DNA of 64,000 bases. Origin: a phage. The DNA lies in the NCBI GenBank assembly GCA_019385495.1, contig GCA_019385495.1_4102.1, one strand, 5' to 3'. Below, piece after piece: positions 40,419 to 43,266 of the stretch. How positions within the stretch are numbered: the first letter of the stretch is position 1; each line of letters starts with the position of its first letter. A model generated the notes under the pieces. That model was not told the origin of the DNA. It saw only the letters and a program-made list of their open reading frames with translations, and did not search any database. The position numbers and the translations under genes are program-made.

Positions 40419-40723
40419 AAAAATTATTAGTTCCGTTTATTTCTTTTTTAATTATAAGTGGATGTGCAGAACAAGTAAAACTACAATCCCCTGCACCAAT
40501 TAAACAAGAAATTCTGTTAGAAAGATGTGATGATGATACACCTCTACCACAAAAAATTATGATTGACAAAAATGGTTTTAAAGGTTATGATGGTGCAGAA
40601 ATTCTTAAAGTACTTACTCGTTGGGATGCAGTATACAACGAATGTGCTTTAAAACATGATGCATTAATTAAAACTATTCGTGATTTACAAGGTAAAGATA
40701 TTAAAATCAATATCAAGGAATAA
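40415..40723 (+). CDS. putative o-spanin lipoprotein (Rz1-like)
   Basis: Signal peptide with lipobox ISGC; ATGA overlap with upstream gene. Confidence 0.5.
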   Translation: MKKLLVPFISFLIISGCAEQVKLQSPAPIKQEILLERCDDDTPLPQKIMIDKNGFKGYDGAEILKVLTRWDAVYNECALKHDALIKTIRDLQGKDIKINIKE

Positions 40724-40724
40724 A

Positions 40725-41195
40725 ATGAACAAATATCATGTTTACTATACGACCAAATTATCACTTCTTGACGAATTAAATCAACGAAGTACTAAGATGA
40801 AACGCTACACTTTAAATGGTATTACTTTTCGATATTTCCCACAAAAAGTTCTTACATTTATTAAGAATCCAAAATGCGTGGCATGTGGGATTGAAGCTAC
40901 TGAAGTACGCATTGAACGTTCATTATGTTCTGATCCAGTATATGGTAAACCACATTTAAATGTATATGCTGTATGTGGTCTTTATGAAGTTTTAATGACA
41001 GTTGACCATAATCATCTGGCATCTAAGGGTGGACCTGATTTAGAGTCAAACTTTAATACTATGTGCTCCAGATGTAATCAACTACGTTCGAATAAAACTG
41101 AAACAGTTGATGAGTTTCTTGAGAAAGTTAAAGGTCGTAATCTTCTCCAAGAACATATGAATAATTTCTTTAATGTACAAAAAAAAGAAAAATAA
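40725..41195 (+). CDS. HNH endonuclease
   Basis: VDHNHLASKGG..N..CSRCN HNH motif; RBS AAGGAA; ORF-track start 40680. Confidence 0.75.
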   Translation: MNKYHVYYTTKLSLLDELNQRSTKMKRYTLNGITFRYFPQKVLTFIKNPKCVACGIEATEVRIERSLCSDPVYGKPHLNVYAVCGLYEVLMTVDHNHLASKGGPDLESNFNTMCSRCNQLRSNKTETVDEFLEKVKGRNLLQEHMNNFFNVQKKEK

Positions 41196-41390: not shown

Positions 41391-41747
41391 ATGAAATCTA
41401 AAATCTTTTTACCACAATTAATGTGGCATCTAGCAGAGTTAGATGAAAATGATGAATATACTGACTATGGTGCATGGGATGACAGTACTGAAACTTTTAA
41501 ACCAGATGTAAAATATAAAATCATCTGCAATGAAAGCAAAGGACACAAAAGGTGGACTGAAGAATTTGATCTCGTATTTCTTGACATGAGCACAAATAAG
41601 TTTTATCATTGTAATTATGAACGAGGTTTAACAGAAGATAGACCAGTACAACCATTCAGTACTGAAACTGATGGTGTTAAGTGCAATGAAGTTTCTGTTA
41701 CCAGAGAAGAAATTATCACTTATCGAACTTTGTGGAAATATTTGTAA
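41391..41747 (+). CDS. hypothetical protein
   Basis: RBS GGAG. Confidence 0.45.
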   Translation: MKSKIFLPQLMWHLAELDENDEYTDYGAWDDSTETFKPDVKYKIICNESKGHKRWTEEFDLVFLDMSTNKFYHCNYERGLTEDRPVQPFSTETDGVKCNEVSVTREEIITYRTLWKYL

Positions 41748-41748
41748 A

Positions 41749-42147
41749 ATGCTTAAAGAATTAGATTTTTCAAACTTAGAAATTATCAGTGCTGTAAAAA
41801 ACATTTCCGATATGGGAGATGAGAAAGCAGTTCTTGTTACTATTACTTTTGTAAAAGAAAAAGATAGCTATAGCTATTTAACTGGCATTGAAGAACTAAT
41901 TCATAAAACCAATCTTGAGAATGATGGTAAACTCATCAAGCTTCAGGCTTCCTATACGCAAAAAACGTCAAATTTTATAGACCTAAATAATGTAGTCAAG
42001 GTGGTATACAATCATCCTGAACACACATATAGGAATACGACAAGAAATGAAAATGTTGCTAACGATTCGAATATTATCGAAGATGTTGAATTCATAAACA
42101 CAATTTTTGATCGTTGTTCTAAGGATTTAAAAAAAGTATACATGTAA
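41749..42147 (+). CDS. hypothetical protein
   Basis: First ATG after upstream stop; ORF-track start 41671 overlaps the upstream gene. Confidence 0.4.
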   Translation: MLKELDFSNLEIISAVKNISDMGDEKAVLVTITFVKEKDSYSYLTGIEELIHKTNLENDGKLIKLQASYTQKTSNFIDLNNVVKVVYNHPEHTYRNTTRNENVANDSNIIEDVEFINTIFDRCSKDLKKVYM

Positions 42148-42176
42148 TGGGACATTATATGTTCCAATGATATAAT
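42148..42176 (+). promoter_or_regulatory. promoter with imperfect palindrome TGGGACAT-tat-ATGTTCCA and extended -10
   Basis: Palindrome 42148-42166; TGaTATAAT 42168-42176. Confidence 0.5.
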
Positions 42177-42183
42177 GTATATA

Positions 42184-42699
42184 GAAAATGACAACGGACA
42201 TTGAAAAATGGACACTGAGAACCTACTTCTCTTGAAAATGTAAAGGATAGATGAGCTTTACCGTTGTAGCGAACAGCAGAAGAAACCTGTTAGAGTACTG
42301 GCATTCAAACAAACACGATGTAAGACCACGAATCACGGCGACACGGCTGTATAAAGAACTCCGATAAGCATACAGAGAGTTCCTAGATAGATGTATAAGG
42401 TTCGCACCTTACCAGATTTGCTAAGGGAGTTTAAGAATAGCGGACGCAATTTTACAAGAAAGTTGCGTCCAAAATTTGAGAACAGGTACTTACTTTGATC
42501 GAATAGAGTTAGTACTGAGTGCTGTTGATGAAAAGACCAGCGACCGTTGCATATGACTGCGATAGAGAGAAACCGAGCAACCCGCTTTCGCTCTCTAAAT
42601 TTTGGTACAAGAAAGATCCGTCCAAAATTTGAGAAATTCGCAATTCGATAATATCCGATGCCATCATCGTCAAGAGAGACTTAATTGTCTCTTTTTTAT
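42184..42699 (+). ncRNA. candidate structured non-coding RNA (about 0.5 kb, unknown class)
   Basis: No credible ORF; GC visibly higher than flanks; own promoter and terminator; several GC-rich hairpins and a 30-nt direct repeat. Confidence 0.3.
42673..42699 (+). terminator. intrinsic terminator
   Basis: AGAGAC-ttaatt-GTCTCT followed by TTTTTTATT. Confidence 0.6.
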
Positions 42700-42837
42700 T
42701 ACCTTCATTCCCCTGCGGGGGGATGTAATAGTCCTCAACAAATCCCGTCAAGTTTTTAAAGTACATTATCATTTTCAGAAGGAACAAGTTTACGAAGTAA
42801 ACGCAGTGACTTCTTGAGTTACGAGAGAACGAAGTGA

Positions 42838-43266
42838 ATGAGTAACACAACGAAAATATCCGATAAATCCGAATTAACACAAATGTTATTCAAAGAATAT
42901 TTTGAGTTTCAGATAAAAGACGAACATCAATTACCACAGCAATATTTGAAAAGAATTAAAGATCCGTCAGTAATTACTAAAGAAACTAATTTTTATAATA
43001 GTATTTTGGATTTCGTTAAATCAGTTCATACAACAAGACCTATTGTAGTTTTGTTTTTTGATAAATCTATTCCTTTAGTAGTTCCTGAAAATGTATTTTT
43101 TATTTCAGAAACTGATTTAAATAATCAAAGTACTGTAAGTAGATTAAGAAATTGCTTACTTGTAGTATGTGATTCTTCTTTGTATAATAACAGAATACTA
43201 TGGGATAGAAGTAAACGCAATGCAGTTTCTGAAATGAATCCTGAAATTACCTTTATTATTAACTAA
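42838..43266 (+). CDS. hypothetical protein
   Basis: ORF. Confidence 0.45.
   Translation: MSNTTKISDKSELTQMLFKEYFEFQIKDEHQLPQQYLKRIKDPSVITKETNFYNSILDFVKSVHTTRPIVVLFFDKSIPLVVPENVFFISETDLNNQSTVSRLRNCLLVVCDSSLYNNRILWDRSKRNAVSEMNPEITFIIN

Follow-up and report, generated by a model that had tools for sequence, protein, structure and literature searches.

To our knowledge, bacteria and phages have so far yielded very few large RNAs that fold in a complex manner. The closest to the RNA described here include ROOL and GOLLD, two large ornate RNAs from phages and prophages that contain pseudoknots and whose function is not known, and expression of GOLLD was found to rise in phage lysis (Kretsch et al. 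2025, PMC12286853). The 64,000-nucleotide (nt) stretch of phage DNA analyzed here (NCBI GenBank assembly GCA_019385495.1, contig GCA_019385495.1_4102.1; hereafter the window) has, at 42148-42837, a gap without coding sequence (CDS) that very probably holds a member of a genuine new family of structured RNA. This RNA is phage-encoded, non-coding and longer than 400 nt and has many covarying helices and a pseudoknot, as is characteristic of large ornate phage RNAs such as ROOL and GOLLD. As in those families, the RNA is of phage origin and its extensive structure is supported by covariation, no protein partner being known on either side, although GOLLD is often >800 nt long compared with about 500-650 nt for the window RNA. 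By comparison, the window RNA matches neither of the two Rfam models, is not located beside a tRNA island (the window contains no tRNA genes, and the tRNA cluster of the phage is found elsewhere in its genome) and occurs not as a single copy but as four or five ancient paralogues per genome, each specific to its position. Unlike ROOL and GOLLD, the family is also found on chromosomal integrative islands, beside a specific membrane protein.

Other large RNAs have been described in the Pseudomonas jumbo phage PA5oct, where RNA sequencing (RNA-seq) defined four long non-coding RNAs (lncRNAs; ncRNA001-004) that are actively transcribed, free of open reading frames (ORFs) and 236-619 nt long; two of these lncRNAs rank with the phage transcripts of highest abundance (Lood et al. 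2020, PMC7318152). PA5oct belongs to a related jumbo phage lineage and its ncRNA004 is located on the + strand between - strand genes, an arrangement that is also seen in the window family. However, the sole nhmmer match, at the 3' end of ncRNA004, was insignificant (4.9 bits, E = 0.026), and a covariance model of the 3' domain of the window RNA (R1), run with filters off, gave a best E of 0.44 outside the annotated ncRNAs. The PA5oct lncRNAs were rejected as family members because neither nhmmer nor the covariance model revealed significant similarity. The 3' end of ncRNA004 (L034:1672-1719) was observed to contain a small hairpin, a U-rich stretch and a UUCCC...GGGGAGGAA hairpin, which are arranged as in the family.

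Covariation and fold of the RNA

The window phage belongs to the RaK2-like jumbo phages (genus Asteriusvirus); an 801-base query was 99.8% identical to Escherichia phage vB_Eco_slurp01 (slurp01) and showed 97.8-99.4% identity to phages 121Q and PBECO4. The ORF upstream of the gap (41671..42147), which encodes a full DUF7325 domain, stops at 42147 and the next called ORF starts from 42838; the gap itself contains only short ORFs without conserved counterparts. GC content is 0.405-0.43 over 42200-42699, compared with 0.25-0.33 in the flanks. An earlier note on this DNA, which was made from the sequence alone, had proposed that the gap lacks a credible ORF, is elevated in GC content and holds a promoter-to-terminator locus for a structured non-coding RNA (ncRNA) of unrecognized class; the first two claims agree with the data above, and the covariation, the pseudoknot and the negative searches reported below bear out the third, with the exception of the 3' boundary.

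RNAalifold analysis of 24 non-redundant sequences identified 80 base pairs, of which 49 showed compensatory double substitutions. In this alignment 95.1% of cells were paired, as compared to 38-42% when the 3' partners were slid by 1-3 columns; the slid alignments had only 18-23 pairs with double changes and a covariation score of 0.05-0.08, versus 0.437 in the true register. None of 500 column shuffles reached the observed value on any of five measures. When bacterial copies were included (34 sequences), 97 pairs were found, 54 of them compensatory, and 93.5% of cells were paired (38-45% when slid), showing that the pairs covary strongly. Moreover, G-U pairs are common and A-C pairs are rare, and the + strand folds better than its shuffled versions (z = -4.66; 0 of 100 shuffles as good) while the z-score of the - strand is -1.86. 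The tolerance for G-U pairs and the strand-specific folding therefore indicate that selection acts on the + strand RNA. Overall, about 20 helices and one pseudoknot are maintained by compensatory substitutions, and the core contains the following parts:

42219-42671, + strand: conserved structured core with multi-way junctions and many invariant unpaired nucleotides (nhmmer, RNAalifold, pair counts)
42223-42250, + strand: P1 hairpin with conserved loop GAAAAUGUA; 7 of 8 pairs compensatory
42255-42270, + strand: P2 hairpin; alignment pair 47-61 is UA 16, AU 9 and CG 9 times
42273-42277 with 42346-42350, + strand: P3, which encloses P3a and a variable insert
42287-42290 with 42335-42338, + strand: P3a, within P3 (pair counts)
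42356-42382, + strand: P4 hairpin, GAACUCC...AGAGUUC; 6 of 6 pairs compensatory (GAACCAC/GUGGUUC in paralogue A)
42396-42411, + strand: P5 hairpin, UAAGG/CCUUA (pair counts)
42442-42482, + strand: copy 1 of an optional module, with hairpin GGACGCAA/UUGCGUCC and motif UACAAGAAAGUUGCGUCCAAAAUUUGAGAA (direct and inverted repeat)
42485-42516, + strand: P8 long hairpin; 12 of 13 pairs compensatory; its loop (42498-42503) forms the pseudoknot
42498-42502, + strand: 5' strand of the pseudoknot, AUCGA (covariation scan)
42519-42544, + strand: P8b hairpin; alignment pair 371-389 is UA 22, GC 5, AU 4 and CG 3 times
42558-42642, + strand: 3' three-way-junction domain with P9, P10 and P11 (pair counts, covariance model R1)
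42558-42562 with 42638-42642, + strand: P9 of the 3' domain
42565-42569 with 42585-42589, + strand: P10 of the 3' domain, with invariant loop AAACCGAGCAACCCG
42591-42595 with 42631-42635, + strand: P11 of the 3' domain, which encloses module copy 2 (42606-42635)
42645-42649, + strand: 3' strand of the pseudoknot, UCGAU (covariation scan)
42657-42671, + strand: P12 hairpin, CGAUG...CAUCG followed by UCA; one-sided changes only

The pseudoknot between the P8 loop and 42645-42649 was found by an all-against-all covariation scan; all five of its pairs are compensatory, 98.8% of cells are paired, and each paralogue has its own code (UCGAA/UUCGA, UUGUA/UACAA, UCAUA/UAUGA, UUGCA/UGCAA). By eye, P12 shows a register shift (GACGA/UCGUC versus GAUGCU/AGCGUC). 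The hairpin that the earlier note gave as its example, GAGAG..CUCUC at 42565-42596, is not the pairing favoured by covariation, according to which GAGAG (42565-42569) pairs with CUUUC (42585-42589) and the other arm, CUCUC (42591-42595), pairs with GAGAA (42631-42635). Two regions of the core vary in content. The insert inside P3 (42273..42350) has two alternative forms in the alignment, and a 30-nt module, UACAAnAnAGnUnCGUCCAAAAUUUG / UACAAGAAAGnUnCGUCCAAAAUUUGAGAA, is found across the family at one, the other or both of two alternative sites. Both are occupied in the window copy (42453-42482 and 42606-42635), and the module behaves like an insertable RNA building block. By comparison, about one quarter of the core positions are invariant, many of them in loops and junctions, including the stretches GAAAAYGUA (loop), GAUGAG, CGGCAAU, GAUAGA, UAAGGGA, GACCGU and the AAACnGnnnnACCCG loop. 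Such invariant unpaired nucleotides typify a tertiary fold or a surface for binding and not an antisense regulator.

That the locus is instead a missed protein gene, a decayed pseudogene or a member of a known RNA class (tRNA, tmRNA, intron, RNase P, GOLLD or ROOL) is hardly credible. Some records do annotate short hypothetical ORFs here, and across several deposited genomes between one and six small hypothetical ORFs are annotated over the RNA locus, for example gp516 of phage 121Q (L001:6410-6565; 51 amino acids (aa), - strand). These ORFs are not conserved and are probably spurious; among 34 homologues the longest open frame shifts in strand, frame and position, 3-nt periodicity is absent (column variability by phase of 0.22, 0.24 and 0.22) and indels that are not multiples of three interrupt conserved blocks, so that no hidden protein is conserved among these homologues. 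The two longest ORFs in the region matched no Pfam family. A small ORF after GGGGGGAUG was also considered and was rejected because of frameshifting indels among members; the window sequence reads ATG TAA at this position.

With regard to known RNAs, ARAGORN detected no tRNA or tmRNA genes in the whole 64-kb window, and a search of the same window against Rfam 15 at gathering thresholds yielded nothing. The Rfam families covered include group I and II introns, RNase P, 6S, GOLLD, ROOL, OLE, HEARO and raiA. With permissive filters (E <= 10), only chance matches to snoRNAs and lncRNAs were found over 41900-43100 (E = 1-9), and the sole Rfam match among seven further member loci was to an unrelated ffs gene. 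A group I intron was rejected since the flanking ORFs are separate, complete genes and the flanks differ among the four paralogues. The earlier note had judged tRNA and group I intron explanations unlikely, and both judgements stand. Full-text literature searches found no paper that describes this RNA.

Four paralogues in jumbo phages

Sensitive blastn searches matched the core (~42218-42750) in 61-72 phage records, with 66-71% identity outside the genus and 4-5 places per matching phage genome. The hosts of these phages include Cronobacter, Pectobacterium, Yersinia, Serratia, Erwinia, Salmonella, Klebsiella and Xanthomonas, and dozens of additional members were obtained from pattern scans of IMG/VR and metagenomes. 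The slurp01 genome has exactly four copies as determined by blastn and covariance model R1, all on the + strand and each filling its own CDS-free gap of 650-840 bp:

~29.5 kb in slurp01, + strand: paralogue A, after the phage sigma-factor gene
~135.4 kb in slurp01, + strand: paralogue B, upstream of the Dam methylase cluster
~188 kb in slurp01, + strand: paralogue C, the window copy
~266.8 kb in slurp01, + strand: paralogue D, flanked by the gene in the endonuclease VII position and, on the - strand, the gene in the baseplate-hub position

Both neighbours of paralogue D are annotated as "hypothetical" in slurp01 and were assigned by position against phages BF and 7t3. Covariance model R1 scored the four slurp01 copies at 88-109 bits, with the next best score in the genome being 15 bits; the window copy scored 97.6 bits with R1 and 398.7 bits with the nhmmer profile (42218-42751).

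Orthologues are present at syntenic sites in Mimasvirus, Eneladusvirus, Alcyoneusvirus and Xanthomonas jumbo phages. For A and B, synteny was confirmed by downstream genes that are orthologous across genera and unrelated between A and B; the RaK2 copy follows the sigma-factor gene and the XaC1 copy precedes Dam. Therefore, these paralogues predate the genus split. The neighbours of paralogue D suggest the same, as the BF and 7t3 copies are located between similarly annotated endonuclease VII and baseplate-hub genes and the ORFs at a further locus (L037) can be read as the same arrangement.

Two observations on neighbouring DNA were also made. An HNH endonuclease ORF (gp513 of 121Q) at 40680-41195 of the window, about 1 kb upstream of the RNA locus, probably encodes a free-standing homing endonuclease; the other paralogues do not have it as a neighbour. 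Elsewhere in slurp01, a CDS-free stretch of 2.2 kb (76123-78315; L007:26124-28314) is located among many short genes and has no match to the RNA family.

Promoter and 3' end

The core is preceded by a predicted promoter and a variable leader and followed by several further conserved elements, which extend up to and possibly into the next called ORF:

42149-42176, + strand: predicted sigma-70-type early promoter with extended -10 (GGGACA at 42149-42154, a 16-nt spacer with TG at 42168-42169, and TATAAT at 42171-42176)
42184-42218, + strand: variable 5' leader, poorly conserved in the window copy (alignments)
42675-42699, + strand: terminator-like hairpin AGAGAC-UUAAUU-GUCUCU (stem 42675-42692), then U5AUU; the stem covaries among orthologues
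42704-42727, + strand: conserved C/G hairpin UUCAUUCCCC-UGC-GGGGGGAUGUA, in all members; its G-U pairs fit a + strand RNA
42736-42752, + strand: conserved 3' block CAACAAAUCCCGUCAAG; CAAAYCYCGUCA occurs in the genome only at the four RNA loci
42794-42813, + strand: 3' extension hairpin GAAGU-AAACGCAGUG-ACUUC with a GAACGnnGUGA loop (per-sequence folds, inspection)
42818-42846, + strand: possible second GAACGAAGUGA-loop hairpin, GUUAC...GUAAC, seen in the sequence; weak, and overlapping the start codon at 42838

The extended -10 promoter that the earlier note had placed here is thus present, and among 39 unique family members, 36 have a TGnTAYAAT motif 29-94 nt 5' of the core, as do all four slurp01 paralogues. 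Given its position before nearly all members, early transcription by the host sigma-70 RNA polymerase is a reasonable inference, with a predicted transcription start approximately 7 nt past the -10 element.

The earlier note also predicted a terminator as the end of a discrete transcript of about 0.5 kb. The hairpin and its T-run are indeed present and the stem covaries, but they do not mark the end of the element, as conserved blocks continue past them to about 42846. The terminator-like hairpin is carried by 21 of the 39 unique copies and is missing from the remaining 18; paralogues A and B lack it, as do the island copies, except for a phage-like E. coli island copy that does carry one. The hairpin and T-run, a putative terminator, are thus an optional insert inside a conserved unit, and a discrete promoter-to-terminator transcript of ~0.5 kb is not clearly indicated.

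Downstream of the hairpin, the sequence to about 42846 contains the C/G hairpin, CAAAUCCCGUCA and covarying hairpins. In slurp01, the C/G hairpin is found only at RNA loci; three of these match CCCC...GGGGG strictly, and the fourth, paralogue A, has a variant. The 3' block was considered as a generic phage promoter motif, which was rejected because it occurs at the four RNA loci only. Also rejected were the closing helix GAUGAG/CUCGUC and the GGGA/UCCC pairing that RNAalifold proposed for the 3' block, since covariation does not support them: the bases involved either never vary or lose their pairing with no compensatory change. In nine sequences GUUGAG is found while CGUCA stays the same. A hairpin with a GAACGnnGUGA loop is located 44-93 nt past the 3' block in 36 of 59 unique members, with most of the others having variants, and its stems differ among members yet stay self-complementary. 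In many members, it is followed by a AACGAAAAUUCUUUGAC block and then by a GNRA-type hairpin. RNAalifold applied to a MAFFT alignment of this 3' extension gave no consensus because spacer lengths vary.

The core is ~480 nt and, with the conserved 3' extension, the unit is at least 600-650 nt. Considering the conserved blocks and hairpins past the terminator-like hairpin, the functional unit therefore probably fills the whole gap and may overlap the start codon at 42838. The called start at 42838 lies within sequence that resembles the GAACGAAGUGA-loop hairpin and the AACGAAAAU block of the 3' extension, and has only a weak ribosome-binding context; an alternative ATG is found at 42883, which may be the true start of the downstream ORF. 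Two candidate readings of the 3' blocks are that they are included in read-through transcripts or that they are transcribed from a weak second promoter. In many members, CGUCAGUAUAAU/UAUAAAU resembles a -10 box or a T4-late-like box.

The order of promoter, large fold, terminator-like hairpin and gene in paralogue C, as well as the extension of the 3' elements to the start codon, resembles a riboswitch or attenuator, in which the fold, upon sensing a ligand or protein, would determine whether transcription passes the hairpin into the downstream gene. Paralogue D, however, has no downstream gene on its own strand (its neighbours are on the opposite strand), the genes downstream of the paralogues are unrelated to each other, and 18 of 39 copies have no hairpin and T-run. 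These three facts effectively exclude a cis-regulatory leader, and assignment of the family to the riboswitches or attenuators was rejected on the first and third of them. In addition, in chromosomal islands that carry a cI-like gene the RNA converges on this repressor gene. We therefore consider regulation in cis very improbable.

Chromosomal islands and a proposed mode of action

A bacterial pattern scan, which included one genome per bacterial species, identified full-length copies in five assemblies, namely Enterobacter chinensis, Silvania hatchlandensis, Buttiauxella, an Enterobacteriaceae isolate and a short contig binned as Clostridium, the latter being a 2.8 kb contig of a metagenome-assembled genome. 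Among 5,426 complete E. coli genomes, two carry a different, very phage-like copy (410 bits). No copies were found in the plasmid collection. Full-length RNA copies are located on small integrative islands of Enterobacter, Klebsiella, Silvania, Buttiauxella and the two E. coli chromosomes. In the typical layout, a recombinase of the tyrosine or large serine type is followed by variable cargo and the RNA, then by a divergent cI-like S24 repressor together with a Ner-like regulator, membrane protein X, an LprI/DUF1311 protein and a resolvase, and finally by more cargo. The parts other than the cargo are common to these islands, while the cargo includes the Kiwa genes KwaA/KwaB or a PDC-S73-like protein. 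One example is L052:3578-14464 in the Enterobacteriaceae chromosome CP193790.1, and related islands are L045, L046, L048, L050, L060, L063, L066, L082 and L083. Insertion sites on the chromosome differ, one being between rlmI and yccX. The island of E. coli LR-29-1 (NZ_AP027515.1, L056:4753-15303), which represents a second island type, adjoins ffs, the gene for the signal recognition particle RNA, and its integrase is disrupted by IS3. Its RNA (L056:9001-9541) is followed by an X homologue of 257 aa, and the island also carries DUF4326, DUF488 and dual-OB genes. The E. coli island copy has a phage-type promoter as well as a terminator-like hairpin. Members from metagenomes are found in one or the other of these two contexts.

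Protein X is a four-pass membrane protein of 286 aa with 56 homologue clusters, named members of which are found in Enterobacter, Klebsiella, Raoultella, Atlantibacter and Silvania assemblies. It has no Pfam, NCBIfam or PADLOC family. Its AlphaFold model is all-helical (predicted local distance difference test (pLDDT) score 77.9, predicted template modeling (pTM) score 0.42) and has no Foldseek match in the PDB at E <= 0.001.

The island copies form two separate subtypes, one with the phage copies L032 and L037 and the other very phage-like. As both subtypes are nested within the phage diversity, the simplest reading is that the RNA was transferred from phages to islands at least twice.

No protein is common to the islands and the phage, and the RNA is the only element they share. 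Together with the defence cargo of the islands, which includes KwaA/KwaB and the PDC-S73-like protein, and with the presence of an X homologue beside the RNA in both island lineages despite their different RNA subtypes (in islands with enough flank), this could be taken to mean that island RNA and protein X form a defence or toxin-antidote pair, and that the phage copies, with their strong predicted early promoters, mimic the RNA and neutralize X; alternatively, the island copy would titrate a phage factor. A precedent exists in type III toxin-antitoxin systems, in which the RNA antitoxin ToxI can be mimicked and pseudo-ToxI neutralizes ToxIN, and here too a phage and a bacterial defence locus have an RNA in common, possibly through mimicry. 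However, the phage paralogues are ancient, syntenic and more diverse, and thus appear ancestral, with the island copies nested within them in the direction of phage-to-island transfer. Phage copies occur in Xanthomonas, Erwinia and Serratia phages, whereas in the single pattern scan island copies were enterobacterial only, apart from the one Clostridium-binned contig. Moreover, Pfam, PADLOC and structural comparisons gave X no match indicative of a toxin and none to a nuclease, and phage copies have no adjacent toxin. The window RNA is about ten times larger than ToxI and lacks the tandem 36-nt repeats and the endoribonuclease toxin of that system; membership among type III RNA antitoxins was rejected because there is only one pair of 30-nt motifs, 153 nt apart, and no tandem short repeats as in known RNA antitoxins. 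An antidote or decoy role is thus improbable.

The islands also carry no recognized replication or packaging genes, which bears on another explanation, that the locus is an RNA-primed replication origin. Each copy would then consist of a strong early promoter, a structured RNA pre-primer engaged in a persistent hybrid, the G/C hairpin and AT-rich DNA, and islands would carry the module so that an infecting jumbo phage amplifies, and perhaps transduces, them. ColE1 RNA II, which is ~550 nt long and structured and has its own promoter, can act in cis at the DNA, as can the non-coding transcripts of the T4 R-loop origins (oriF, oriG), which have dedicated promoters and occur several times per genome. 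The window family likewise has a predicted promoter, conserved before 36 of 39 members, for a candidate non-coding transcript. An origin would fit the four copies dispersed over the 348 kb genome in one orientation irrespective of the direction of neighbouring genes, the self-contained and portable nature of a module that islands carry without a recognizable replication gene, and the conserved blocks past the terminator-like hairpin that are unique to these loci; the phage also encodes RNase H and has genes annotated as DNA polymerase I and II. On the other hand, there is no sequence similarity to ColE1 RNA II or the T4 origins, and the fold is far more elaborate than theirs; ~20 covarying helices, a pseudoknot and invariant loops far exceed what known primer RNAs need. 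The G-U tolerance shows selection on RNA rather than on a DNA cruciform. Cumulative GC skew follows gene orientation without any feature at A, B or C, a test that is weak for such phages. Taken together, we regard a replication origin as quite improbable.

Our preferred reading is that the locus is a gene for a large ncRNA with a complex, maintained three-dimensional fold, which belongs to a family absent from Rfam 15 and acts as proposed here; we consider this reading as a whole to be reasonably probable. As regards the mode of action, the fold is complex and has invariant unpaired nucleotides, the locus does not depend on the genes around it (copy D is oriented opposite to those that flank it), and the cassette is portable and self-contained. 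These features point, with a likelihood that we put at even or slightly below, to a trans-acting folded RNA particle or ribonucleoprotein made early in infection. According to this proposal, host RNA polymerase would transcribe the RNA early in infection, and the RNA would fold into a particle that works in trans by binding a conserved partner, which may be a protein, another RNA or its own copies, and would be neither an antisense regulator nor a leader acting in cis. The hairpin and U-run would serve as a leaky or optional terminator, such that part of the transcripts would carry the conserved 3' blocks. Islands with a copy beside protein X would have captured the phage RNA at least twice, and may use it to interfere with, or to exploit, an RNA-dependent step of the jumbo phage. 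The "regulatory or anti-defence" role suggested by the earlier note is a guess.

Several points weigh against this proposal. The mode of action is deduced from the conservation pattern and from analogy with large ornate RNAs, and both ends of the RNA are predicted. The RNA-seq-defined PA5oct lncRNAs are not detectably homologous and thus lend no support from expression. No conserved protein partner is found beside the phage copies, where downstream genes are unrelated between paralogues. In addition, the blocks past the hairpin fit a simple terminated RNA gene awkwardly, and could reflect a function at the DNA level or a second transcription unit.

A more far-reaching version, which we consider unlikely though conceivable, is that the RNA forms an essential self-assembling particle of RaK2-like jumbo phages in which the four or five paralogues, each with its own pseudoknot code, take distinct positions or roles, and that the islands, having captured the RNA at least twice, pair it with X as a decoy or sensor or as a handle for satellite hijacking. 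If this is true, a large structured RNA would be a shared currency of the conflict between phages, islands and hosts.

On a practical level, small and probably spurious ORFs are annotated across these loci in many deposited genomes. The family is also tractable, as it is found in cultivable phages of E. coli, Salmonella, Klebsiella, Cronobacter and Erwinia and has strong covariation and a clean pseudoknot, and its four ancient paralogues invite genetic dissection. Each discovery of a large RNA with a complex fold, including RNase P, group I and II introns, OLE, GOLLD, ROOL and HEARO, opened new biochemistry. Taking into consideration that the RNA is the sole element common to jumbo phages and defence-carrying islands, its distribution suggests a role in the conflict between phage and host or between phage and satellite.

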